Below are positions 3,778-49,246 of a stretch of 62,660 bases of DNA, in pieces. How positions within the stretch are numbered: position 1 is the stretch's first letter; the number at the start of each line of letters is the position of its first letter. The notes under the pieces are model-generated. The model was not told the origin of the DNA and did no database searches. It saw only the letters and a list, made by a program, of their open reading frames with translations. Origin of the DNA: a virus. Taxonomy: Duplodnaviria > Caudoviricetes. The stretch lies in IMG/VR virus record IMGVR_UViG_3300001918_000027, positions 1-62,660 of that record, one strand, 5' to 3'. A program made the position numbers and the translations under genes.

Positions 3778-4225
3778 TTTTAAAACCTAGTTTTAATTGA
3801 GGTAAAAACAAACCCAGTACCAAGCCCAGGGCAGCAACACCGATGAGGTGCCAAAAAGAAAAGCCCTCCACACTTTCTTGCTTATCTTTTTCCTTAAGCA
3901 TTTCGGCAATGGCCACAATGGCTTGCCTGGCTGCGCTGTCTACAGTATTGCTCTGCTTACTTTCGGCCTTACTGCCTCGTTCATAAATTCGCTCAACCGG
4001 AAAGTTGAAAACGTTTGTATCTCCAGGTATTACAACCGGCTTAAACCTTTCAATGAGGCGCTCAAAATCTAAGCTACTGTTTTGCGAAACATTTGTCTTC
4101 CGAACCCCAATGCTGTCGACCTGCTGCAGTCCCTGCTTTTCACTTTCTGACTTCTTTACATCTTTGGACAAGCTGCAAGAAATCAGGAGTAATAGCAGAA
4201 TAAATAATTTACAATTTCGGAGCAT
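3761..4225 (-). CDS. Putative unimolecular spanin
   Basis: N-terminal lipobox LLISC plus C-terminal hydrophobic segment; lies between holin and endolysin. Confidence 0.7.
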   Translation of the reverse strand: MLRNCKLFILLLLLISCSLSKDVKKSESEKQGLQQVDSIGVRKTNVSQNSSLDFERLIERFKPVVIPGDTNVFNFPVERIYERGSKAESKQSNTVDSAARQAIVAIAEMLKEKDKQESVEGFSFWHLIGVAALGLVLGLFLPQLKLGFKNGKAG

Positions 4226-4640
4226 AGCCTTTGAGTTTTAAAATGAGTACATTATGCAATGGCTTCACCAAATATTTTACAACATCATTACTGGGGTGTG
4301 CCTCTATAATGTTTTCCAAAATACTTTTGAACTCGATATACATCGACATCAATAAGATCACATTTAGTAAATTATCCAAGGCTGTGTTAACTATGCCTGT
4401 ATTAGGTACGCCGGGCTTTGCAACATTGGCTATTACGAAAACCGCACTCAAAAAGGAGAAATACATGGTCCCCTTATTAATGGTCATCCTGAAGCCGTTG
4501 CTGCTGGTAGCAATCCGTTTCTTACTTGATTTATGTACACCGGTAATGAGGTCGATAACCATGAGGAAAAATAGCCCAAGTACAAGCCGGCCGTCGGGAT
4601 AAATAATGTTCTGAATTAAACTATACAAATACTCTTTCAT
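4209..4640 (-). CDS. Phage holin (holin_4-like)
   Basis: Three hydrophobic segments, DLITG..K and E..SI.EN motifs. Confidence 0.85.
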   Translation of the reverse strand: MKEYLYSLIQNIIYPDGRLVLGLFFLMVIDLITGVHKSSKKRIATSSNGFRMTINKGTMYFSFLSAVFVIANVAKPGVPNTGIVNTALDNLLNVILLMSMYIEFKSILENIIEAHPSNDVVKYLVKPLHNVLILKLKGYAPKL

Positions 4641-4685
4641 TGTAAAGATTTAAAAAAAGTGAATTTTCTGACTAAGAATTAATCA

Positions 4686-6305
4686 TCAATACCTATACTC
4701 CACTTCTCCATATTTTATTGGCTGCCCCGCATTTTCATTATCATTATTCCATCCTAAGATACTATTTAGGTAACGGTCAACCCAAGCAAAATAGTAAGGA
4801 ACTCTATTTTTAGGCAACTTTTTTAAGTCGTAAAAATTTGTTGTAACGTAACTTTCGGGGTAATTATTTATTGGGCTCATAGGGTTGCTGCTACCTACTT
4901 TAAGATGTGCAATTGAGGCATTAACCCCGGATTTTAAATCTAAATGATTTACTTCCATTACGTGAAAAGGCAATACACCCAGCTTACTAAAGGTAGGGTT
5001 ATAAAACCATGTATTTGCGTTTCCTGTAGGTTTTACAAAAGAAAAATTGCATCGGTAAACTATAGTACTATCATCTATCGAAGAGCTATTGTTATTGTCA
5101 TAACAACCTAGCATATAAATGCTAGTGTCTAAAACTGCAAATCTTATGTTTAAACTACCTAGAGAATTGTAATTAAATAAACCGTCTTGCCAAAAAGCAG
5201 TATCTGTGCCGGAATGCCTTTTATTAAAACTTACATACTCTTTTCCAGATGCTTGTTGAGACACTAAAGCAGTAATAGAGTAAAAACCAGAAGCATTATC
5301 ACCAAGGTTTCCTAAGTAAAAAGATTCCAAACTCCCTGAATAAAATCGTTTCTGTAAATCTATGACAGCGGAAGAACGAAATTCCTCTAATAAAGCACCT
5401 GTAGCAGAGGCAATGGAAATCATATTAATTTTAGAAAAAACATCTCTTGTAGATGTAGTACGTATTGTGTTTGAGCTACCTTGTGTTGTTGCGGAATCCC
5501 CGCAATACATGAAATACCCTAAGTATTCATTTATTTGCCCAAGTATATAAACATCAGAAAATTTAGTATTCTCCCTGACAGGAACTTCGGGAGAAGCTAC
5601 AAAATCTAAACTAGAATTATTGATGTAAAACATGACATACCTAGCATACCATGATCTAACATCATCAACATCAACTGCATAATTAAACAAAACACCATTT
5701 CCGACTTTATACACATCATTCATAGGTATTTTATCAGAAAGAATAGCGGTTCTCAAATTATCGGCATCAATTACAGTATTATAGTCCAAAGTATATTGCC
5801 ACCCATTGGAATAGTAAGTTGGTGGAAAGATAAAATACCCTCTTTGGGTTTGATTACTGATAAAAATAGAATGTAGTGGGGTCTGAGTAAAATAATCTGC
5901 CGAGCCAGAATTTATAGATAAATTGTAACGATAGGGAGGTTCATCCCAATTCATAAAATAAGTAATGCCGTACCTTAAAGTATCAACAGGCTTAAAAAAA
6001 GAAGTGGTTTTTAAGTTATTGGAACCTAATTGATTAGGGACATTCGTAGTAGATTGAGCTGCATTAACCCTTACCCAATTTGTATTATTAAAATTTCTTA
6101 CCCACACACCACTATCTGCCCCGCTGTGCACAAGGATTAAATTACCTGGTCTGCTACCTGCAGCTGTTGCATTACTCAGGCTCGAATAACGAGGTATTTG
6201 ATTGACTGTTACGGTGTTAAGCCTATCGATTTGAACAAACTGTGTGCTTGCAATAGATGCAAGAAATAAAGCCGTAAATAGTGTGAAAATCTTTCTAATA
6301 TTCAT
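4686..6305 (-). CDS. Hypothetical AT-rich protein with Sec-type signal peptide
   Basis: MNIRKIFTLFTALFLASIAS-TQ N-terminus; ATGA-coupled to upstream gene. Confidence 0.6.
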   Translation of the reverse strand: MNIRKIFTLFTALFLASIASTQFVQIDRLNTVTVNQIPRYSSLSNATAAGSRPGNLILVHSGADSGVWVRNFNNTNWVRVNAAQSTTNVPNQLGSNNLKTTSFFKPVDTLRYGITYFMNWDEPPYRYNLSINSGSADYFTQTPLHSIFISNQTQRGYFIFPPTYYSNGWQYTLDYNTVIDADNLRTAILSDKIPMNDVYKVGNGVLFNYAVDVDDVRSWYARYVMFYINNSSLDFVASPEVPVRENTKFSDVYILGQINEYLGYFMYCGDSATTQGSSNTIRTTSTRDVFSKINMISIASATGALLEEFRSSAVIDLQKRFYSGSLESFYLGNLGDNASGFYSITALVSQQASGKEYVSFNKRHSGTDTAFWQDGLFNYNSLGSLNIRFAVLDTSIYMLGCYDNNNSSSIDDSTIVYRCNFSFVKPTGNANTWFYNPTFSKLGVLPFHVMEVNHLDLKSGVNASIAHLKVGSSNPMSPINNYPESYVTTNFYDLKKLPKNRVPYYFAWVDRYLNSILGWNNDNENAGQPIKYGEVEYRY

Positions 6306-19084: not shown

Positions 19085-20122
19085 ATGTTTAAAATCTTTA
19101 AGGCACAAAAAAAGGCCTTTCTTCCGCTGTACAAAGCCATTGCGGACAAAATCAGTAAGGGTGAGGTACTTACCCCGGATGGCAGCAAGTTCACTAAAAA
19201 CACGATTTATAACTACAAAAGCGGAAGCTACCGCTTCAGTCAGTACGAAGCCGAAAACGGAATAATTTACCTCGAAGACATCAATCCCCAATGGGCTGAA
19301 CAGTTCTCGGTGTTTTTGATGAAAAAGGGTTATTGCAAAAACACTATTGCTGTAACGCTGGCAAGGTTAAAAGCCGTTTTGAGGAGGCTTTATGACCAGG
19401 GTGTATCGAAGTACAACGGCAATGGCATAAGGGCTAGTTCTGAACTAACAACCGCTGTTTATAGCAGTATTGAAGACATACGGCAGCTGATGGAGTATGA
19501 TTTTTCCAATACGCCGGGATTGGAAAGAGTAAGGGATATCTATGTTCTGCAATGCTTTATAGGGCTTAGATATAGTGATTTGGCTTCCATTCTGGAGGAG
19601 CCCAAGCGTTTCCTTAGGGACATCGGAGGCAATTTGTTTTTTGATATCAAAACCCAGAAAACCGGGGAGGTGGTTGTAATTCCTGTGGCTCAAGTAGTAA
19701 AAAAGATCCTGGAGAAATATGGCTATACCTTTGGCAAATGCTTTAGCTATCAGTACTACAATAAGTCCATAAAGGAAATCGGCAGGCTTGCTGGCCTCAA
19801 TCAGGAAATTTCCTGCAGCAGGACGGAAGGTGGCACCCGGGTAGATACAGTTAGGCTAAAATGGGCGATGATGAGCAGCCACACCGCAAGGCGAACCTTT
19901 GCCACTAATGCTTTTTTAGCCGGGCTGCCGGAAAAAAGCATTATGGTCATTACCGGCCATAAAACACATTTGGCATTCAATAAATACATCCGGTGCTCCA
20001 GCCTCGACAACGCCATAAAATTGGCAAATCATGACTTTTTCCACCTTGATTTACCCGTAATAATTACCTTGCCGCCACCAAATCAACCGAAATTAACAGA
20101 TGAAAACAGCGACGACAGATGA
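19085..20122 (+). CDS. Tyrosine recombinase/integrase (Bacteroidota type, SAM-like plus catalytic domain)
   Basis: GLRYSD, TQKT, SSHTARRTFAT, TGH, YIR catalytic residues. Confidence 0.92.
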   Translation: MFKIFKAQKKAFLPLYKAIADKISKGEVLTPDGSKFTKNTIYNYKSGSYRFSQYEAENGIIYLEDINPQWAEQFSVFLMKKGYCKNTIAVTLARLKAVLRRLYDQGVSKYNGNGIRASSELTTAVYSSIEDIRQLMEYDFSNTPGLERVRDIYVLQCFIGLRYSDLASILEEPKRFLRDIGGNLFFDIKTQKTGEVVVIPVAQVVKKILEKYGYTFGKCFSYQYYNKSIKEIGRLAGLNQEISCSRTEGGTRVDTVRLKWAMMSSHTARRTFATNAFLAGLPEKSIMVITGHKTHLAFNKYIRCSSLDNAIKLANHDFFHLDLPVIITLPPPNQPKLTDENSDDR

Positions 20123-41896: not shown

Positions 41897-43366
41897 TTAC
41901 GCAGGGTTAAACATTTCTTCGCTTACTTCAATTTTTGGGAAAAGTTCCTTTACTTTTTTCCAATCACCTTTAAAGAAAACCAACACGTTTTGATGCGTCC
42001 GGCAAAGCTTTCTGTTGGTTTCAAACATCCGCCTGGCCCTGATGGCACCGCTGCCGATCTGATTAATCAGCACCGCATCGTTGTAAAACTTTGCCCCAGC
42101 GTCTTCGAAAGCTGCCACGGTATCGGCCACAAAACCTTTATTAAATCCCTCCTTCCCTCTGATCTCCGTTACTACGAAGCAGGCAAAGCGGTTTTCCTTT
42201 AGCCGGGCAACGGCTTTGCGGATGATGGAAGAGTATATGTCCCTGAATTCTTCGTAACTCATATTGCTCAGGTCTGCTGGATCATCGCTATATTGTTCCA
42301 GGTCATGGTATGGTGGGCAGGAGAAAATGAAGTCATAACTCCCCTGGATTGCATCCAGCACCTTATTACTATCTCCTTCCTTCCAATAAACTGATAGCTC
42401 CCTGTCCTGGGCCTTTTCAATCAATTTCGCATGCTTTCTGTTGACTTCAACTTGGTCGGCCCTTAAATCTACCCCTAAATATCCCATACCCAGCAGCCCG
42501 GCTGTTATACCCCTCACGCTGCCACCGGCAAAGGGGTCGAGGATATTCCCTCCGGGTAAATTGAACCACCGGTATGCGATTTCACACAACACGGGGTCGA
42601 AGATGCTGGCACCCTTGTAAAGGCTCATGCCCTTCCGCTTGGCTTCCTCCAGGATTTCCTCCCAGCTGGGGTCGCGGCCAAGCAAAGCCCGCATCTTATT
42701 GCGGAGTTCATAGACCTCGCTATTTTGGGCACTGTCAGCCATCAGCTCGACGTCTTCCCGGGTTTCCTGGCTGTCAGGCAACAATTTATCCCACATGGCC
42801 CTGCGGTCCTGCCAATAGCCCTGCCGGGTATCTAGTACCGAGAATGGCGGCACAATGAAGTCATCCTGCAGGCTCCGTTTGGCTTCCTCAATACTGGCTT
42901 CGTCGGGGCCTTTCATGCCGAGCTCAAACTCCATCATGTCGAAGTCCGGGAGGTCAATTTTCATTTTCATGGCTTCGAAGTCGAGCTCGAAGGCTTGCAT
43001 AAAGTCCAGCAGACCCTCCTCCCTTACTCGGGCATAAATTGAGGAGTACTGCAGCACGAGTTCCGCTGCCTCCTTTTTATTCATGCAGTCAATGAAAGTC
43101 GCGGGCAATTGTTCCGGAACTGAAAAGCCCTCGGCTACGAGCTCCATTAAGATGAGATACCGGTGGCGGCCGTCGAGGCACCACACCGGGCCATCCATGT
43201 CCTGCCATACATAAAACGGCTGGGTAAACTTATTGCCAATAACGCTTTGCCGGAGGCGCTGCTTTGCGGACTCGCTCCAGCCTTTGAAATCTTCCTGCTG
43301 CAGAAACTTTAACTGCTTCCATTCTATGTCCTTGGTACCTACTACTTTGCTCCTAATTGCCTCCAT
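41897..43366 (-). CDS. ParB-like N-terminal domain fused to amino (N4C/N6A) DNA methyltransferase
   Basis: LDGRHR; PPFSVLD.R.G.WQ; DPFAGGS; SCPPY. Confidence 0.85.
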
Positions 43367-43547
43367 TTGGTCATATTATGACACGAAGTTAGTTATTTTT
43401 ACTTTTTATGCGTTATTTTAACTAATTTCTTAGCAAAGAACTACGGTGCCCGCACTAAATGTCGGACGTTAAATAAGATGCTACATGAAAAATCAAGCGC
43501 CTTAATTCAATCCTTAAAACTTTTTTGTCACCAAAAAATCACAGTTT

Positions 43548-43850
43548 CTATCTCTCCTCGGGTGGAATTCGGGAAAAAGCTTTATCAACCATGGCTTGAG
43601 CCACAAGGGAGCGGACATCATCAGGAGGGAAGCAGTGGAAAAGGCGGCACAGCTCCAGGCACTCGGTTACGATTTCATCACAGGTTTTGTACGCCGGGAA
43701 AAGGAATTGAACGCCATAGTGTATTAGTTCTTTGCTGAGCTGGCGCTTGTTTCCGGGCAGGTTTAGCAAATCATCAGTTGCGGAATGCAGGAAGGTATAA
43801 AGCTCTGCTTTTGCTTTGATTCGGTCGCGGTGTGCTGTGTGGTTTGCCAT
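43548..43850 (-). CDS. Hypothetical protein
   Basis: 100-aa ORF. Confidence 0.5.
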   Translation of the reverse strand: MANHTAHRDRIKAKAELYTFLHSATDDLLNLPGNKRQLSKELIHYGVQFLFPAYKTCDEIVTECLELCRLFHCFPPDDVRSLVAQAMVDKAFSRIPPEER

Positions 43851-43927
43851 TGGGTAAATGTAACAAAAATTTTAAAAAAAAAACACCAAATAGCCTGATT
43901 TCTTTGTATCTTGTTAAAAATTTCGAA

Positions 43928-44656
43928 ATGAAAGCAGGGGTTTACAAAATTTCAAACTTTTTAAATAAAAGGTGCTATATCGGGTCTAGCATTAATCTAA
44001 AGGCACGACTTGCAGAGCACAAAAACGACCTACGGAAAGGCAATCATCATTCTTTATTTATGCAACGTGATTTTGACGCTTGTGGTGAAGCTTTTTTCGA
44101 TTTTGATGTACTCGAAACTATCAATGACATAAAAGATTTAATTAAAAGAGAACAATATTATATTGACAAAATCAATCCAGAATACAACACTTTGAAATTT
44201 GCAGGCAGTTCATTAGGGGCAAAAGCGTCACCTGAGGCCATAGAAAAAAATAGGCTAAGAAACACCGGCTTTGGTAACGGAAATTGTAAGATAAAAGGTG
44301 AGGTATTTGAAGCCATGAAGCACTACCGACAAACACATACTCAAAAACAAACTGCTCAAAAGTTTGGAGTAAACATATCGACAATTCAAAGAATCGAAAA
44401 GAGGGAGGGCCTTTCATTTTCTACTAAAATTTATTCTAAGGAAGGTAAACAGATTCTTTCTAAAAACGCTAAAACAAGGAAAAGTGCTGTAGCAAAAAAA
44501 GTCGAATACATTTCCCCGGATGGGGTTGTAGTAGTTTTTTGCTCAATAACTCAAGCAGCAAAAGCTCTTAATATTTCAAAATGTACTGTTTTTTCCTTGT
44601 GTAGAAATATTTGTAAGACTAGAAAATATGATATTAGATATGCAGAATTAGCATAA
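43928..44656 (+). CDS. Free-standing GIY-YIG homing endonuclease with HTH/NUMOD1-like tail
   Basis: GVY...YIGSS.NL..R..H, REQYYID, PEYN..AGSSLG; F.SI..AAK.L. Confidence 0.88.
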   Translation: MKAGVYKISNFLNKRCYIGSSINLKARLAEHKNDLRKGNHHSLFMQRDFDACGEAFFDFDVLETINDIKDLIKREQYYIDKINPEYNTLKFAGSSLGAKASPEAIEKNRLRNTGFGNGNCKIKGEVFEAMKHYRQTHTQKQTAQKFGVNISTIQRIEKREGLSFSTKIYSKEGKQILSKNAKTRKSAVAKKVEYISPDGVVVVFCSITQAAKALNISKCTVFSLCRNICKTRKYDIRYAELA

Positions 44657-45194
44657 TGGCATCACGCATATCCTGGTTTATTCTGCCTTTCCAGAGGTTT
44701 AGCCGTTTGAATTCTTCTGCTGAAACTTTGGCCTTACTTGGTTTAACTTCATGATATTCAATGCGTTTCCTTTGTAAATAGCTGCAAATCAGTTTACCTA
44801 CCTGATGGCAGGCTCCGACATTCTTTGCGATCTTTTCCCGGCTGCCAGCTCCTCGGGCTTGGTGCCAATTGCTTTTGTCTATAAGCCAACCGGCGTCGAT
44901 GTAAACCCTCAGGTCTGCGTCTTTGCTGAGGTGGTTGATGAGGTTGAGGACGTCGTAAAAATGCAAGGCCTTGACATCCAATATCTTAGCCGTGCCCATT
45001 TCTTTTATGGCGACTCCGCAGCGGTCAACGTCGGGATCGATTCCCAGGAGGAAAACTTTTTTTTCATTTCCAGTCGATTCGTTGGCCGGGATTTCGGGCA
45101 AATGATTTACTTGCTGGACCGGGACGGTTGCTTTAGCTCTTATGCCCTTGGTCTCTAGGCGCTGAATGTCCTGTAGTGTGAATCTCTTACTCAT
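44634..45194 (-). CDS. RuvC-like Holliday junction resolvase
   Basis: LLGIDPD...GVA, D.RDA motifs. Confidence 0.7.
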   Translation of the reverse strand: MSKRFTLQDIQRLETKGIRAKATVPVQQVNHLPEIPANESTGNEKKVFLLGIDPDVDRCGVAIKEMGTAKILDVKALHFYDVLNLINHLSKDADLRVYIDAGWLIDKSNWHQARGAGSREKIAKNVGACHQVGKLICSYLQRKRIEYHEVKPSKAKVSAEEFKRLNLWKGRINQDMRDAIMLILHI

Positions 45195-45231
45195 GTGTGT
45201 AGTTCAGTTGCGTAAATGCAGGCGTTATGCG

Positions 45232-45657
45232 TCAGGCTAAAAGACCATTCCATTTCAACATATCACGGACAACAGACCAGTCAACAAACGGACGTTCCGA
45301 AAATTCTTTGTCATATTTTAACGGACAACCTAATGCAGCATCATCAATATACATTTGAGCATAAGCCTTTGGGCTTGTAGTCCAAGTGTGTTGAGTTGGA
45401 TTAGTTTGTATTCCATAAAGTGGTATTTCATTTTCTTTAAACCAATTAACAGCATCGCTTAAATAATTGCCACTTTCAAGGTGTAATTCGTTATCCTCAC
45501 CAGTAGGATTAACTATGTCGCTTCTCATTGTGAATAAGACCAATTGGTGTCCATTTTCAACCAATGCTTTTAGTACAGGAACGGCCTTTATATCCTTTCC
45601 TACTTTTGGAAATTCGTGAGTTACACACGTTCCATCGAAATCAATTGCTATTATCAT
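45232..45657 (-). CDS. HAD-superfamily phosphatase-like protein (BT0820-like)
   Basis: IAIDFDGT, LFTMR, K..A.MYIDD. Confidence 0.85.
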   Translation of the reverse strand: MIIAIDFDGTCVTHEFPKVGKDIKAVPVLKALVENGHQLVLFTMRSDIVNPTGEDNELHLESGNYLSDAVNWFKENEIPLYGIQTNPTQHTWTTSPKAYAQMYIDDAALGCPLKYDKEFSERPFVDWSVVRDMLKWNGLLA

Positions 45658-45694
45658 TTTTTAAAATTTTAATTCGTTAAACAAAAGCCCGAAC

Positions 45695-45825
45695 GCATAA
45701 CAAGGGTTTGTAGCAATAGGGGCAGAAGTGCAAGTTTTAAGCCGTTTACTTCTATTGGGCTGTGGTGGTGGTTTGAACAGTAGTGCTATAAATCCCCTAC
45801 TGCTACAAGCCCCGAACCGTTAGCG
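45695..45825 (+). repeat. attC-like recombination site 1 (131 bp)
   Basis: GCATAAC...GTTAGCG with arms GGGTTTGTAGCAATAGGGG / CCCCTACTGCTACAAGCCC. Confidence 0.8.
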
Positions 45826-46617
45826 GCAATACCGTGACACCCTATTAACGGCAATGTCGTAATATTCCTGCTCCATTTCTATCCCTATGAATTTTCTACC
45901 TGTTAACGCACAAGCGACACCAGTTGAGCCAGAACCCATGCAGTTATCCAAAACCGTTTCGCCTTCATTTGTATAGGTTTTGATTAAGTACGCCAGTAAT
46001 GCAACAGGTTTTTGAGTTGGGTGTAAACTGCTGTTTTGCGTATCGGTTGAAAACTCTTGAATGCTTCTTGGGTATCGCTCTGTGCTTTCATATGTGTAGT
46101 CATTATTCATATCGCCATAAACATCCGTTTGCAAGTGCTTTGCCCTAAAACTTTTCTTCTTTACATGCCCGGAGGTTTTTTGCGGGTTGTAAGTACATTG
46201 CTGCTTGTAAAAAACACTTATCACTTCATGGTTTCTCATTGGCTGTTTTTTGGCATTTAAGAAGCCTGTGCCTTTTATTTTGTCCCAAATCCAATCGTAT
46301 TTGAATAACTTAATGTTGCTCAATCGTAAGTAAGAACTAAAAGGCTCTGCACCAAAAAGAACTATTGCTCCATCATCTTTTATCACTCTTTCATACTGCG
46401 GCCAAAGTTCATCGAATGGTATAACGGCATCCCAGGCACATTGCGTTGTGCCATAGGGCAAATCACATAAAATCATATCAACCGACTTAGAAGAAATCTT
46501 GTCCATTTCTTGTATGCAGTCACCGTGATATAATGTACTGCCGCTAACAGTGCATTGCTGCAATGCTGGCTGACGTACATCACTCATCGGTATATTTTCA
46601 AATAAACTTTTCTGCAT
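45820..46617 (-). CDS. Site-specific DNA methyltransferase (N6A/N4C, beta class)
   Basis: LYHGDC, CDLPYG, HPTQKPV, LDNCMGSGSTG. Confidence 0.92.
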   Translation of the reverse strand: MQKSLFENIPMSDVRQPALQQCTVSGSTLYHGDCIQEMDKISSKSVDMILCDLPYGTTQCAWDAVIPFDELWPQYERVIKDDGAIVLFGAEPFSSYLRLSNIKLFKYDWIWDKIKGTGFLNAKKQPMRNHEVISVFYKQQCTYNPQKTSGHVKKKSFRAKHLQTDVYGDMNNDYTYESTERYPRSIQEFSTDTQNSSLHPTQKPVALLAYLIKTYTNEGETVLDNCMGSGSTGVACALTGRKFIGIEMEQEYYDIAVNRVSRYCR

Positions 46618-46674
46618 AGTTTGAACTTCGGTTTTTCAAATTCCAGCACTGACAGCAATGCTTTTACGTTAGTG
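46542..46674 (+). repeat. attC-like recombination site 2 (133 bp)
   Basis: CGCTAAC...GTTAGTG with arms GCATTGCTGCAATGCTGG / CCAGCACTGACAGCAATGC (one bulged base). Confidence 0.8.
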
Positions 46675-46899
46675 ACTATTGCCAACCTCAATCTCAGCCA
46701 CTATATCAAAACCGGTTTGGTGGCTGATGTTATAAATTCCCGATGAAGTCCACATACAAATAGCCCTTGTTACCTCTCCGCTATCGTCAGCAACAAAGCC
46801 CTTCCATACATACATTCTATAAATGAAGGAGAGGTCCTGTGTTATAGTCGCTACTTGGCCGCTCCGTGTCCTGTATTGTTTCCCAAGTTGTAATTCCAT
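46669..46899 (-). CDS. Hypothetical phage protein
   Basis: L..GK.YRTRSG..A.I...W...G......FDIV motif. Confidence 0.65.
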   Translation of the reverse strand: MELQLGKQYRTRSGQVATITQDLSFIYRMYVWKGFVADDSGEVTRAICMWTSSGIYNISHQTGFDIVAEIEVGNSH

Positions 46900-46924
46900 T
46901 TCTGTAGATGACTTAGTTATGAAT

Positions 46925-47209
46925 TTAATTTAGCTGAGCCTGCTTGTATTGCTCTGCTATGGGCTGAAAGGCTTTTGTATCACTGTAGCATTCCTGAAAC
47001 AGGGGATTCCGGATCCAGGTCATAAATGCCATGTGGGTGATGTCATCTTCTTTCTCCGGCGGGCAATCAATCCAGTAATGCAGGAGCTCGCAGCACTTAA
47101 GTTCGACTACCTTGGTTACCCTGCAGCCCGGCTGCTGTTCTACCAAGGCTCTAAATTCAAGGTGTAGTTTGTAATTCACATGCAATGTGAGGGGGTATGT
47201 CTTTGTCAT
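46925..47209 (-). CDS. Hypothetical protein
   Basis: ATGA-coupled ORF starting MTKTYP. Confidence 0.5.
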   Translation of the reverse strand: MTKTYPLTLHVNYKLHLEFRALVEQQPGCRVTKVVELKCCELLHYWIDCPPEKEDDITHMAFMTWIRNPLFQECYSDTKAFQPIAEQYKQAQLN

Positions 47210-47469
47210 AATTTCGAATTTGTTTGCATAAAACCTAAATCTATCTCCCTGACCAAATAGGCCTCCCATTTCACCAAATCAAGCCGGTACTGCTGCTTCC
47301 ATTCAGCAATTTTTTCGTACACAGCCTCGATGTCGGCAACGTTGGCTTCATCAACCTGTCTGCCAGCGATATAGAGCTCAAGCCTTGGCAATGGTGTTAT
47401 TTTTTTGTGGTTCAAATTTTTCAATGATGTAGATGTAGTTACCATCAACATTTTCTTCGGGCAAATCAC
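47206..47469 (-). CDS. Hypothetical protein (start uncertain)
   Basis: ORF in operon. Confidence 0.4.
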   Translation of the reverse strand: MICPKKMLMVTTSTSLKNLNHKKITPLPRLELYIAGRQVDEANVADIEAVYEKIAEWKQQYRLDLVKWEAYLVREIDLGFMQTNSKL

Positions 47470-47731
47470 GACTAATTGTGTCGCTGGCTTCGTCTCTTAT
47501 TCTGAACCGTTCAATAAACTTGCCATCTCTAAAAAGCTGAATCCAATGTTTCCACCAATCCTGCGAAGGCCCTTTTGTATCAATCAGCAGCCTGATGGTG
47601 GCGGTTTTGTTGCTGTTTTTCTTAAAGTACAATTTCTTCCAGGCCTTTATCCTCATGTATGCATGGTCAAGACCTGCTTCGTACTCTCCATCAAGCGCCT
47701 GCCATTGTCCGTTTACTAAAATGTTTTTCAT
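47378..47731 (-). CDS. Hypothetical protein
   Basis: ATGA-coupled 117-aa ORF. Confidence 0.5.
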   Translation of the reverse strand: MKNILVNGQWQALDGEYEAGLDHAYMRIKAWKKLYFKKNSNKTATIRLLIDTKGPSQDWWKHWIQLFRDGKFIERFRIRDEASDTISRDLPEENVDGNYIYIIEKFEPQKNNTIAKA

Positions 47732-48516
47732 TCCTTACGTGTTTTGCTAGTGGCTCTTTCATTTTCAATCAATTGCTCGACATAGTGAATAATTGCCATC
47801 CTTTTGCTCTCGGCCTGAATTCTTGCCGTGGTAGTACCGGATTTACTGGCTTCGATGTCGGCTAGGATATCGTTGATACTTTTACCGGCTTGCTTAGCAT
47901 CGTGTTTTTCCTCAGCCAACCGGGCTAACACTGCCGCTCTGGCGTTGGCAACGAATTGTTCTGCAGGTACGGTTATCCTGCCGGCTTTAAGCAAATAGTC
48001 ATAAATGGCTGTCGGCAGGATTTTGGGCCTTTTTCCGGCTACGATTTCGTTTTTGATAGCCAAAACGTGGGGCCACCAATCCGCAGGCGGTGGCGGCAAT
48101 TGGATTGCCGGTTCTTGCCGTCTGTGGCGCTCGATATCGGTGTTTTTTTGTACACGGCCGGCATTGATCAAATAGGCCCGGTAACCCGCCATAATTCGGC
48201 CGAAATATTCGCAGCTAAAATTTTCATAGCACCCGCTGTCATTGATTGGCAGCTGGCCAGTGATGGCGAGGTCAAAGGCTTCGCTGATTTGCTCTGTCGT
48301 GTAGTTCCCGTAATACTTCATTATAAATTCTGCCAATACCGCCTGCTCTTCATCCGTTGGCATGTTAGCCTTCCTAAGGCCAACTTTTACCATAATTTTA
48401 CGAATTGTGTGGTTGAATAAATCGAGCGAGGTCAATTTGCTTAACGCCATCAATTCTGGCTTCACTTGTACCTGGCTTTGTACTACCGCTGGCTGAATTT
48501 CCATTTTGTTTTCCAT
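47728..48516 (-). CDS. Putative helicase loader/replication accessory protein (start uncertain)
   Basis: Follows initiator; T.E.I..AF.LA..G...YENFSCEYF motif. Confidence 0.55.
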   Translation of the reverse strand: MENKMEIQPAVVQSQVQVKPELMALSKLTSLDLFNHTIRKIMVKVGLRKANMPTDEEQAVLAEFIMKYYGNYTTEQISEAFDLAITGQLPINDSGCYENFSCEYFGRIMAGYRAYLINAGRVQKNTDIERHRRQEPAIQLPPPPADWWPHVLAIKNEIVAGKRPKILPTAIYDYLLKAGRITVPAEQFVANARAAVLARLAEEKHDAKQAGKSINDILADIEASKSGTTTARIQAESKRMAIIHYVEQLIENERATSKTRKE

Positions 48517-49246
48517 TCGCTGTAATTGAATTAAATTTTGACAATAGATTTTGGAGCTCAAAGTTTTGCCGCATCCATTCATCGTGATTCCAGGCCTTTT
48601 TCAGGAAATAGGCAAAAATCTTTACCGCATAGTCTTCGTCCCAGTCATGATTTTTCGCCTTAGCGAGTTTTTGAAGTGCGGCAAGAATTTTTTTAAGGTG
48701 GGCTCCTTGGGTGGAATTAAAAAGCGGAGTAATTGGCTGGCCGTTTTCATCCCGGAAATTGGCTTTATAAAAATCAAACCAACATTCAACGATTTTTTTC
48801 CAATGGGCCGGTTCGTCAGAACCGGAAGAAGAATTGTTTCGTTTAGTTTTGTTTTGTTTAGATATAATGTTCGCCTCAATACTGGCCTCATTACCCCCGT
48901 CAATACTTACGCCATTACTTACCGGATTACTTACGCCATTACTTACCGGATTACTTACTTTATTCCAGTAATCATTTAAAAAATATTGCGGCGCCTTTTG
49001 TTTTGTAACGCCATTTTTAAAATCAATCAGGCCTACTTGCTTCAGTACATTTCGGGCATCAATCAGCGTTTTTTCAGTAACACCTATGCCTGAGCAGACC
49101 AAGCCATTGGAGCAATAGAAGGGATTTTCCCAGTTCCGCTGATTACTTTCCTGCAAGAGAAAAAAGTATAAATCGGCTTGAACATTGGTTATTTTCCTGC
49201 TTCTTCTCAGCTGCCAAAACCTGTTGATGAATTCGATATAGTTCAT
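48398..49246 (-). CDS. Phage replication initiator protein
   Basis: N-terminal wHTH (LYF.LL...N..W...ARN.L.Q.GLI.F..G), low-complexity iteron linker, SKQNKTK. Confidence 0.75.
   Translation of the reverse strand: MNYIEFINRFWQLRRSRKITNVQADLYFFLLQESNQRNWENPFYCSNGLVCSGIGVTEKTLIDARNVLKQVGLIDFKNGVTKQKAPQYFLNDYWNKVSNPVSNGVSNPVSNGVSIDGGNEASIEANIISKQNKTKRNNSSSGSDEPAHWKKIVECWFDFYKANFRDENGQPITPLFNSTQGAHLKKILAALQKLAKAKNHDWDEDYAVKIFAYFLKKAWNHDEWMRQNFELQNLLSKFNSITANGKQNGNSASGSTKPGTSEARIDGVKQIDLARFIQPHNS
48904..48958. repeat. 12-bp tandem iterons (putative origin of replication)
   Basis: TACTTAC at 48904, 48916, 48928, 48940, 48952 with alternating GCCAT/CGGAT. Confidence 0.75.

Follow-up and report, generated by a model that had tools for sequence, protein, structure and literature searches.

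What are the two genes, each bordered by a long imperfect hairpin, that lie between a RuvC-like resolvase gene and a 76-aa gene in the prophage record IMGVR_UViG_3300001918_000027 (62,660 nt, analysed in full and hereafter called the window)? The original prediction had read 45225-46668 as an integron-type cassette array inserted at a stop codon. We consider it probable that this segment is a two-unit, recombinase-less mobile cassette array, belonging to an integron-like system of Bacteroidota and their phages. All four genes of the locus are on the minus strand in the ORF list, and its features are as follows (a slash within a motif marks the crossover point):

44634..45194, minus strand: RuvC-like Holliday junction resolvase gene (phrog_1770, E 2.9e-14)
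45195..45224, no strand: 30-nt spacer, whose last base is the G of the left junction G/TTA
45225..45819, no strand: cassette A, consisting of TTATGCGT..., the HAD-like gene, ACGCATAAC, hairpin 1 and G
45232..45657, minus strand: HAD-type phosphatase-like gene, 141 aa (phrog_1238, E 1.6e-30)
45698..45822, plus strand: hairpin 1 (attC-like), TAAC...GTTA, with inverted repeat 45704-45722/45794-45812
45820..46668, no strand: cassette B, consisting of TTAGCGGCAATA..., the methyltransferase gene, TACTGCCGCTAAC, hairpin 2 and G
45820..46617, minus strand: N6/N4 DNA methyltransferase gene, 265 aa (PF01555, E 5.4e-31, domain from residue 46)
46545..46671, plus strand: hairpin 2 (attC-like), fold z -2.8/-2.9
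46669..46899, minus strand: 76-aa backbone gene from the ORF list, stop at 46669-46671

The HAD-like product also matches NF046079 (BT0820-family HAD phosphatase) at E 3e-19, under the cut-off of that model, and family searches with the 76-aa protein return no match. Pfam and NCBIfam searches with the RuvC-like protein (44634..45194) return no match either, and viral contigs searched for its close relatives yield none. This backbone gene adjoins the array and occupies the place held by a recombinase in related arrays.

The predicted hairpin, box and gene coordinates were all checked in the sequence and are borne out. The cores at the feet of the hairpins are TAAC at 45698 with GTTA at 45819, and TAAC at 46545 with GTTA at 46668. 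At the cassette borders, GTTATGCGT (45224-45232) is complementary to ACGCATAAC (45693-45701) at 9/9 positions, and GTTAGCGGCAATA (45819-45831) to TACTGCCGCTAAC (46536-46548) at 12/13, the latter pair growing to 17 nt at 88% in a repeat search that also gives hairpin 1 a 19-nt stem at 89%. Among the 95 TAAC...GTTA pairs spaced 50-170 nt apart in 62.7 kb, hairpins 1 and 2 rank first by stem, at 14 and 12.5; the next-best stem in the window scores 9, and the maxima in 10 shuffled windows are 7.5-11. Alignment of hairpin 1 to hairpin 2, both in the same orientation, scores 76, against a mean of 27 (sd 9, maximum 58) in 200 shuffles. The thermodynamic stability of the integrated hairpins is by itself modest (z -1.2 to -2.9), and an Rfam scan of 44500-47500 at E<=10 returns two chance matches only. 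A single GTTA + 9/9 + TAAC pair in 62.7 kb is not unusual by count, 6/20 shuffles having one; the weight of this pair comes from its position at the feet of both hairpins and from the comparative data.

Insertion at a stop-codon TAAC holds as predicted: the target TAAC takes its TAA from the stop codon (46669-46671) of the 76-aa gene, and the stop TAA of the methyltransferase gene is the TAA that ends its cassette. Read on the minus strand, the junction at 45195..45224 is TAA/C GCCTGCATTT..., and the spacer is the insertion junction. Deleting 45225-46668 leaves the stop of the 76-aa gene 30 nt from the RuvC-like ATG, the clean join that had been anticipated.

Copies in other contigs confirm that both cassettes are real and that their predicted borders are exact. 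Cassette A is ~92% identical over 592-606 nt in three unrelated viral contigs (L181, L182, L183), where the matches span 45219/45223 to 45813/45822. Cassette B recurs in an otherwise unrelated, complete DTR phage contig of 34.6 kb (L045), at 94.8% identity over 858 nt, and in a further contig (L020) at 83.7%, and its homology stops at TAA/C on either side. A different cassette at the same junction in a close relative, which had also been expected, is present in metagenome contig L357, where a 95% identical RuvC-like protein lies beside a cassette comprising a 97-aa ORF and a hairpin scoring 57.9 bits; homology of the window to this contig starts at 45229 (CATAAC). The precise empty site expected in relatives did not appear among the viral contigs, in which the predicted 16-mer has 10 matches, none otherwise similar to the window and all attributable to chance. 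Hairpins accompany only those 6 of 80 viral methyltransferase homologues that cover the N-terminal residues (5 match from residue 1-2 and one, in L088, from residue 19), and among bacterial-genome homologues only 2 of 79 loci (L114 and L155) have them. The segments 45225-45819 and 45820-46668 are confirmed as two discrete mobile cassettes.

Both window genes are antisense to their hairpins, which precede or overlap the gene start. In the direction of transcription, hairpin 1 comes 41 nt ahead of the HAD start; the start codon of the methyltransferase gene (ATG 46617) sits in the loop of hairpin 2, which is therefore partly coding, ~28 N-terminal residues being encoded by its arm and the R box. 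We also considered that each hairpin might belong to the gene on its right (plus strand), and rejected this because the methyltransferase start is inside hairpin 2, because no hairpin lies left of 45224, and because the filifjonk and mumin insertions have their hairpin at the right end. The hairpin thus goes with the gene on its left on the plus strand, and the predicted antisense arrangement stands. It recurs in other viral loci (32/32 and 37/39 matches), and inverted gene polarity is a property of phage cassettes of this hairpin family. Chromosomal arrays of the same family, by contrast, have the usual sense polarity, gene then hairpin, with 20/28 ORFs on the hairpin strand.

The family itself was defined from an alignment of 20 hairpins from 5 phages. 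Double compensatory changes occur in 17/20 stem pairs, and 75% of the cells are paired; shuffles reach 58%, and slid controls 31-47%. A covariance model of the family, R1, yields 50 same-strand sites (E<=5.4e-5) across the window and four Flavobacterium phages, with 21 bits on the reverse strand versus 112. The window hairpins score 78.8 (hairpin 1) and 74.6 bits (hairpin 2) as members of the training set; homologues of both in non-training contigs score 62.8-86.1 bits, the hairpin 1 homologue in L181 reaching 86.1, and hairpin 2 homologues in Flavobacterium phages show compensatory stem changes. Cultured Flavobacterium phages carry arrays of 9-15 hairpin units and differ by whole-cassette insertions or deletions at G/TTA, each consisting of a gene and the hairpin on its right. 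The four phages contain 7, 7, 11 and 12 GTTA + 9/9 + TAAC pairs, compared with 0-2 in shuffles of one of them (L007). In the family the paired box reaches 13 bp, one fixed mismatch or wobble included; the spacer is asymmetric, 1 nt versus 5-6 nt (A against about GAAAC), with conserved A.C and T.G positions. The box of cassette B fits this pattern, fixed mismatch included, and that of cassette A is shorter, reaching 5 nt past the core. When circular junctions are folded, the gene-sense strand is the more stable in 21/21 cassettes, and the T.G wobble of the box lies on that strand in 20/21. R1 also matches 44/151 sampled Bacteroidota genomes. The window hairpins belong to this Bacteroidota hairpin-cassette family, for which we found no published name.

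That the hairpins occupy the transcribed strand immediately upstream of gene starts or across them, and that the sense strand folds better, could also suggest that they are RNA or transcription elements (for processing, termination or translation control) at which modules are exchanged by homologous recombination, as has been proposed for the promoter stem-loops of T4-like phages. Given the overlap with gene starts, the hairpins may have a role at the RNA level. As an explanation of the cassettes themselves this is very unlikely: the stems covary with little shared sequence and so offer no substrate for homologous exchange, the gene-flanking boxes can pair only once a circle has formed and have their wobble at a constant position, the borders fall exactly at TAA/C, and the same hairpins follow genes in bacterial arrays.

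A small Xer-like tyrosine recombinase stands at the end of arrays of this family in 32/80 viral loci and also in bacterial chromosomes; the viral loci were selected for similarity to the recombinase and were not sampled at random. Since a single-sequence search with the recombinase found only 2 loci, an alignment was used as the query instead. All 97/97 hairpins in the 32 loci lie upstream of the recombinase and antisense to it. In 15/26 loci the distance from the end of the last cassette to the recombinase ATG is 54-57 nt, and the motif TAYTATATGTA follows that cassette; phage loci have this attI-like site ~55 nt ahead of the ATG. Downstream of the recombinase, contexts are unrelated (a shared protein in 5/136 locus pairs). 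A recombinase of this type also adjoins chromosomal arrays; in G089 and G050 the hairpins detected are 11.6 to 650 kb away from the closest one, and 4/6 of the stretches beyond bacterial arrays are without one within 5 kb (in G133 and G050 it lies further on). Muminvirus gp003 was considered as a remnant of the recombinase N-terminus and rejected, its likeness being confined to spacing and the first codons.

The window, over its 62.7 kb, has no array-type recombinase and no IntI (no TIGR02249 match); its only tyrosine recombinase, at 19085-20122, is a weak, ordinary integrase-like match 25 kb away. Nor does the spacer 45195..45224 align to the attI-like consensus, leaving the window junction without an attI-like motif. 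Because the array-type recombinase is missing from the window, we take the locus to be an orphan array that occupies a secondary TAAC. The hairpin sites and tetranucleotide target might bring to mind single-strand transposition by an HUH enzyme of the IS200/IS605 type that recognizes the hairpins. This is extremely improbable, as the window has no match to the Y1 transposase (PF01797), each unit has one long hairpin and not two small subterminal ones, and the linked enzyme is a tyrosine recombinase.

The array-linked enzyme is a simple Xer-like recombinase and not IntI. Two such proteins score 154.8 and 202.8 bits on TIGR02249 in a two-piece match (cut-off 265); when such a protein is aligned to IntI4 (2a3v), 25 query residues stand opposite chain residues 180-247, ~43 residues being absent, and the best solved relative is XerA (4a8e). 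The IntI-type recombinase of the original prediction is accordingly replaced by an Xer-like one that falls below the integron-integrase cut-off and has no IntI insertion. This finding bears directly on the proposal that the cassettes are canonical integron cassettes, their hairpins being true attC sites recombined by the classical IntI of the host. The AAC/GTT cores, the G/TT crossover and the complementarity of each cassette end with its inverse core all speak for that proposal, and IntI1 recombined attC sites of other phages, including Polaribacter phage P12002L, as described in the accessible parts of PMC9892861; the P12002L methyltransferase is a homologue of that in the window. We nevertheless judge it unlikely, because array-linked recombinases reach only 155-203 bits on TIGR02249, gene polarity is inverted, and the P12002L locus has no R1 match at E<=1 and no box signature. 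Furthermore, the phage list of Qi et al. (PMC9892861), in the portions available, contains no Flavobacterium phage, and IntegronFinder 2.0, in what is accessible of its published results, records hardly any Bacteroidetes integron, an indirect contrast with the 44/151 genomes matched by R1.

Alternatively, the cassettes might hijack host XerC/XerD, the dimer-resolution recombinases acting at dif, and have no dedicated enzyme. CTX-type phages and other IMEX elements do use XerC/XerD at dif via folded single strands. In keeping with such hijacking, complete array phages are without a tyrosine recombinase (0/4 cultured records, and none in the complete DTR contig G005), and crossover after ...TAA at the inner end of a ~13-bp box may resemble Xer cleavage at the border of arm and central region. 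Set against this is a dedicated clade of array-linked recombinases with a fixed attI-like site, which makes hijacking of the host enzymes quite improbable.

Returning to a mobile cassette array with an array-linked type of recombinase, we infer a single-strand mechanism. On the gene-sense (minus) strand each unit runs C, ~125-nt imperfect hairpin, GTTA and short box, gene, complementary box, TAA. In the excised circle the hairpin would become one long stem, closed by the two boxes and the TAAC/GTTA cores; a tyrosine recombinase of the Xer/IntI clade would then exchange one strand at TAA/C between this folded site and a target TAAC, with replication resolving the product. Because the TAAC used in the window is the stop of the 76-aa gene, the cassettes at this secondary site are part of the minus-strand operon and leave it undisrupted. 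The enzyme would presumably act in trans, coming from the host or from a phage infecting the same cell. An orphan DNA methyltransferase and an HAD phosphatase make a cargo that fits phage counter-defence and accessory functions.

On balance we favour, with some reservation, a broader reading in which these arrays represent a second, unrecognized integron lineage common to Bacteroidota and their phages. It would be characterized by a simple Xer-like recombinase without the IntI insertion, ~125-nt attC-like hairpins and a 13-bp box, with the usual polarity in bacteria and a mirror-image one in phages, where the site leads each cassette and cassettes are co-transcribed towards the recombinase. 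Phages and hosts would share a single pool of cassettes, in which methyltransferases and other counter-defence genes belong to the phage side, and orphan arrays would be serviced in trans. The system is widespread in Bacteroidota and their phages and apparently undescribed: the only published account we found is that of phage CALINs by Qi et al. 2023. Standard tools, going by the published surveys, detect almost no integrons in Bacteroidota and few small attC clusters in phages.

The usual view treats integrons as devices of bacteria, with IntI as the defining feature. If our reading is true, an Xer-like cassette system that occurs in about three of every ten Bacteroidota genomes sampled and in many of their phages would widen the term 'integron', would bear on the origin of IntI from Xer, and would offer a testable mechanism by which phages exchange single accessory genes, anti-restriction methyltransferases among them. 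Differences of single cassettes among cultured Flavobacterium phages make the idea testable at the bench.

Among known systems, CTX and other IMEX elements are similar in a folded single strand, an Xer-type recombinase, exchange of one strand and resolution by replication, a likeness that is presumed for our arrays and established for theirs; they differ in that a whole phage genome enters dif, whereas here many small cassettes are served by a recombinase clade of their own. Also related are the 17 phage CALINs reported by Qi et al. 2023 (Front Microbiol, PMC9892861), which in the accessible parts of that paper have 2-3 sites each by canonical attC models, several carrying N6_N4 methyltransferases and one being from a flavobacterial (Polaribacter) phage, with no Flavobacterium phage listed in those parts of the main text and supplement. 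Both sets are recombinase-less clusters of attC-type sites in phage genomes; a dedicated recombinase, an attI-like site and inverted polarity are not described there, as far as the same parts go (PMC9892861). With two sites 849 nt apart and no IntI or array recombinase, the window would itself class as a CALIN if its hairpins are counted as attC-type. Integrons proper (IntI integrase, attI and attC-bounded cassettes), above all the sedentary chromosomal ones, share arrays of single-gene units, ~60-130-nt imperfect hairpins, AAC...GTT cores and G/TT crossover, a cassette start complementary to its own inverse core, and an Xer/IntI-clade tyrosine recombinase with a non-hairpin attachment site at the array end where units enter. 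In attC sites the choice of strand is set by extrahelical bases and an unpaired central spacer, features to which the asymmetric spacer, the A.C/T.G positions and the better sense-strand fold may correspond. Unlike integrons, these arrays have a simple Xer-like recombinase under the family cut-off and without the IntI insertion, a box of up to 13 bp with a fixed mismatch or wobble, and a spacer of 1 versus 5-6 nt; and in phages the genes, that of the recombinase included, are flipped relative to the sites, so that the hairpin leads the gene and often holds its start codon.

The two-cassette array proposed at 45224-46674 exists and is built in the way the original prediction set out, with each coordinate proving correct when checked in the sequence. 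The locus contains the following features.

44634-45194, minus strand: RuvC-like resolvase (phrog_1770)
45232-45657, minus strand: HAD-like phosphatase
45698-45822: hairpin 1, imperfect, with TAAC...GTTA feet
45820-46617, minus strand: N6/N4 DNA methyltransferase (PF01555, E 5.4e-31)
46545-46671: hairpin 2, imperfect, with TAAC...GTTA feet
46669-46899, minus strand: 76-aa gene

Cassette A (45225-45819) holds the HAD-like gene and hairpin 1, cassette B (45820-46668) the methyltransferase and hairpin 2. Each cassette gene is flanked by short complementary segments we call boxes: in cassette A, GTTATGCGT (45224) is complementary at 9/9 positions to ACGCATAAC (ending at 45701), and in cassette B, GTTAGCGGCAATA (45819) at 12/13 to TACTGCCGCTAAC (46536-46548), a pairing that stretches to 17 nt at 88% in a repeat search. 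By count alone, a lone box pair in a sequence of 62.7 kb is nothing unusual (6/20 shuffles contained one). The two stems, scoring 14 and 12.5, rank highest among the 95 TAAC...GTTA pairs spaced 50-170 nt apart in the window (third, 9; best stem in ten shuffled windows, 7.5-11), and same-orientation alignment of hairpin 1 with hairpin 2 scores 76, versus 27 +/- 9 (maximum 58) in 200 shuffles. Fold z-scores of the window hairpins are modest (-1.2 to -2.9), and an Rfam scan of the locus gave no relevant match. The methyltransferase ATG (46617) lies inside the hairpin 2 loop, the left arm and box coding for the first ~28 residues. Nearby, a GIY-YIG homing-endonuclease-like gene (43832-44656, plus strand; PF01541 plus HTH/NUMOD domains) sits in a low-GC island (0.34-0.36), antisense to the minus-strand operon that surrounds it, and shares 23 nt with the 3' end of the RuvC-like gene. 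A 489-aa protein (41897-43366, minus strand) joins a ParB-like N-terminal part to a second N6_N4 methyltransferase domain, so the phage has at least two methyltransferases, one alone being a cassette.

The window methyltransferase matches Flavobacterium phages at ~72% DNA identity, and the four scanned (mymlan6-1, mumin6-1, filifjonk9-1, hemulen6-1) carry serial TAAC...GTTA hairpins, on one strand throughout, with all annotated genes on the opposite strand. When the 2 window hairpins are aligned with 18 from these phages, both-sided changes appear in 17/20 variable stem pairs and 75% of cells are paired, versus 58% in shuffles (0/500 reach 75%) and 31-47% with slid partners, which supports a conserved structure. 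The covariance model built from this 20-hairpin alignment, R1, identifies 50 sites at E<=5.4e-5 (two of them the window hairpins, the others spread 9, 11, 15 and 13 over the four phage loci), every one on the same strand; because the top site's score drops from 112 bits to 21 when the reverse strand is read, hairpin polarity is well defined. Beyond hairpins 1 and 2, R1 located no site in the window, and the locus of Polaribacter phage P12002L gave no match. A 44-kb contig from a Nitrosotalea MAG (L114, archaeal bin) bears 10-12 hairpins in two opposed blocks, and is probably a wrongly binned phage contig.

In the Flavobacterium phages every GTTA is followed by 9 nt that are complementary to the last 9 ahead of the next TAAC, always at 8/9 positions, with the lone mismatch at a fixed position (C.A as read on the hairpin strand, equivalent to a T.G wobble on the gene strand). 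These phages contain 7, 7, 11 and 12 such pairs, and 50 shuffles of one of the four loci (L007) contain 0-2. The window cassette B box has exactly this form, fixed mismatch included; the one in cassette A is shorter and reaches 5 nt past the core. Differences between the four phages consist of entire cassettes bordered at G|TTA: filifjonk has an extra unit (1652-2063), a gene with a hairpin at its right end, inserted at the extreme array end with no hairpin to its left, as well as a three-unit insert, and mumin has one additional unit (4193-4698) with a chimeric hairpin. The arms of that hairpin (L006 4570-4698, mumin6-1 gp008 cassette) resemble two different hairpin types and hence pair poorly. 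The assignment is settled by the phage indels, by the methyltransferase start within hairpin 2 and by the fact that no hairpin lies to the left of 45224: each phage-type cassette has its hairpin upstream of its own gene, in the direction of transcription.

Both window cassettes recur in unrelated surroundings. Cassette B occurs in L045, a complete contig of 34.6 kb that has terminal repeats (94.8% over 858 nt, window 46671 to 45815) and, over about the same span, in L020 (83.7%); cassette A occurs in three loci (L181, L182, L183) at ~92% over 592-606 nt, with ends at 45219/45223 and 45813/45822. Compared with window positions 43000-49000, these five loci have no resemblance outside the matched cassette, and homology ends at TAA|C on either side. 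Judged from these alignments, cassettes A and B are mobile units. The original prediction also anticipated differing cassettes at the same site, and a metagenome contig (L357) bears this out: its RuvC-like protein is 95% identical to that of the window, similarity starts at CATAAC (45229), and upstream lies another cassette, whose 97-aa ORF has its start inside a hairpin of 57.9 bits. The precise empty site that was likewise expected did not materialize, a 16-mer search giving chance matches alone. Hairpins accompany 6/80 viral methyltransferase homologues, all 32 R1 matches being antisense to the genes; these six are the homologues covering the hairpin-encoded N-terminus (five from residue 1-2, L088 from residue 19). 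Among HAD homologues 11/80, the closest, have hairpins, with 37/39 R1 matches antisense. Directly past the HAD cassette of L182, 23 nt (5431-5453) are identical to the start of window hairpin 2; cassettes A and B may be neighbours there also, or this hairpin type may be common to both.

Profile searches of the window detected no integron integrase, HUH transposase or recombinase of the array-linked family described below. Its sole tyrosine recombinase (19085-20122, plus strand, 345 aa; weak Xer-like and phrog_1 integrase matches) lies far from the array, falls outside that family in searches, and is probably the prophage integrase. No tyrosine recombinase was found in the four cultured phage records or the complete cassette B contig. 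The array-linked recombinase was first seen in a viral contig of 169 kb that carries 13 hairpins and in a phage-like Pedobacter MAG contig, in both after a methyltransferase gene, which in the Pedobacter contig is a cassette with its start codon within a hairpin. An alignment of four such recombinases was used to collect 80 viral loci, 32 of which (31 sites) contain 97 hairpins, every one (97/97) antisense to the recombinase and upstream of it, with 0 downstream. Hairpins are absent from 14 loci with recombinase identity of merely 27-33%, and several other hairpin-free loci have no DNA upstream of the recombinase. Downstream contexts are unrelated (a shared protein in 5/136 locus pairs), which argues against conserved synteny with some lysogeny integrase as the sole explanation of the linkage. 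The enzyme resembles Xer proteins: NF040815 is the best-matching family (206-216 bits, cut-off 220), TIGR02249 matches in two pieces at 155-203 bits (cut-off 265), and the closest solved structures are, in order, XerA 4a8e, XerA 5hxy, IntI4 2a3v and XerD. Relative to IntI4 it lacks ~43 residues of chain region 180-247, which we take to be the location of the IntI-specific segment.

The array/recombinase junction was inspected in 26 viral loci, where the last cassette terminates in TAA|C preceded by its box. From there to the recombinase ATG the distance is 54-57 nt in 15 loci and 45-50 nt in 4; in the remaining 7 the script chose a farther TAAC or ATG, and 3 of these have the same arrangement by eye. 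An alignment of the junctions (A3) places the motif TAYTATATGTA after the TAAC. Muminvirus arrays (L006, which is mumin6-1, 1592-1651; L007) finish with this attI-like motif, TAAC TACAATAT..., and a 65-aa gene (gp003) starts at the 57-nt spacing in place of the recombinase ATG, an end that looks like a platform after recombinase loss. The motif is absent at the window junction. We therefore read the TAAC there as a secondary site, occupied by an orphan array of two cassettes.

R1 at E<=1e-6 matches at least 44 of 151 evenly sampled Bacteroidota genomes (22 candidates scored per genome). Hairpins number 22 over 19.9 kb of contig G022:C12 and 9 over 19.8 kb of G133:C1, each set on a single strand, with 20/28 and 16/24 ORFs on the hairpin strand in the order gene then hairpin, the usual integron polarity. 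The box signature, with the identical fixed mismatch, recurs in 14 and 4 pairs (shuffles, 0-4 and 0-2). A recombinase of the array-linked type (346-362 aa) is encoded less than 2 kb from the array end in two genomes (G022, G133) and less than 12 kb from it in two more (G050, G023); in G089 it is distant from the array. By hairpin polarity the recombinase occupies the same array end in bacteria and phages; what is flipped relative to the hairpins, on the phage side, is the orientation of the recombinase gene and of the cassette genes. The claim that the window genes are antisense to their sites is thus upheld within the family, by comparison with sense-polarity bacterial arrays. One chromosomal cassette (L384, from G022:C12, 4018-4672) has two small adjoining ORFs (103 and 112 aa), recalling, in ORF layout alone, the toxin-antitoxin pairs of large integrons. 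A Salinivirgaceae MAG (G010) has 27 R1 matches over ~25 small contigs, frequently at contig ends, which suggests one large array fragmented in assembly at repeated hairpins; a recombinase of the array-linked family lies on a 1-kb contig.

The available text of Qi et al. (2023, PMC9892861) describes 17 small phage CALINs that canonical attC tools detected, among them P12002L with methyltransferase cassettes, and IntI1 recombination of 5/6 sites tested; its CALIN list, supplement included, contains no Flavobacterium phages. Flavobacterium phages and their variable methyltransferases were described by Nilsson et al. (2020, PMC7077304), in whose main text 'hairpin', 'palindrome', 'integrase' and 'variable region' never occur and the four displayed uses of 'repeat' refer to repeated bench steps. 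For Bacteroidetes, the available text of the IntegronFinder 2.0 paper (PMC9024848) reports In0 elements and one complete integron only. A literature search outside subscription journals found no description of the system.

Circular-junction forms were made by script, joining each cassette's own two ends, and both strands were folded. The gene-sense strand is the more stable in 21/21 cassettes (mean -21.6 versus -18.2 kcal/mol, Wilcoxon p 6e-5), and the sole non-Watson-Crick box pair is T.G on that strand in 20/21. Because boxes are adjacent in the circle only, selection on them points to a folded DNA intermediate and not to RNA structure. Crossover would fall at 5'-TAA|C, the 5' foot of the folded sense strand, and the Xer-like enzyme may recombine the cassettes as single strands, presumably reaching the window array in trans.

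In integrons, crossover on the attC bottom strand is known at the corresponding position, with which the deduced TAA|C crossover agrees. What stands of the integron-type assignment is the workings: the window array would function as an integron cassette array does, yet the enzyme linked to such arrays does not qualify as an IntI and the polarity is inverted, which together very probably place the system outside the classical integron family.
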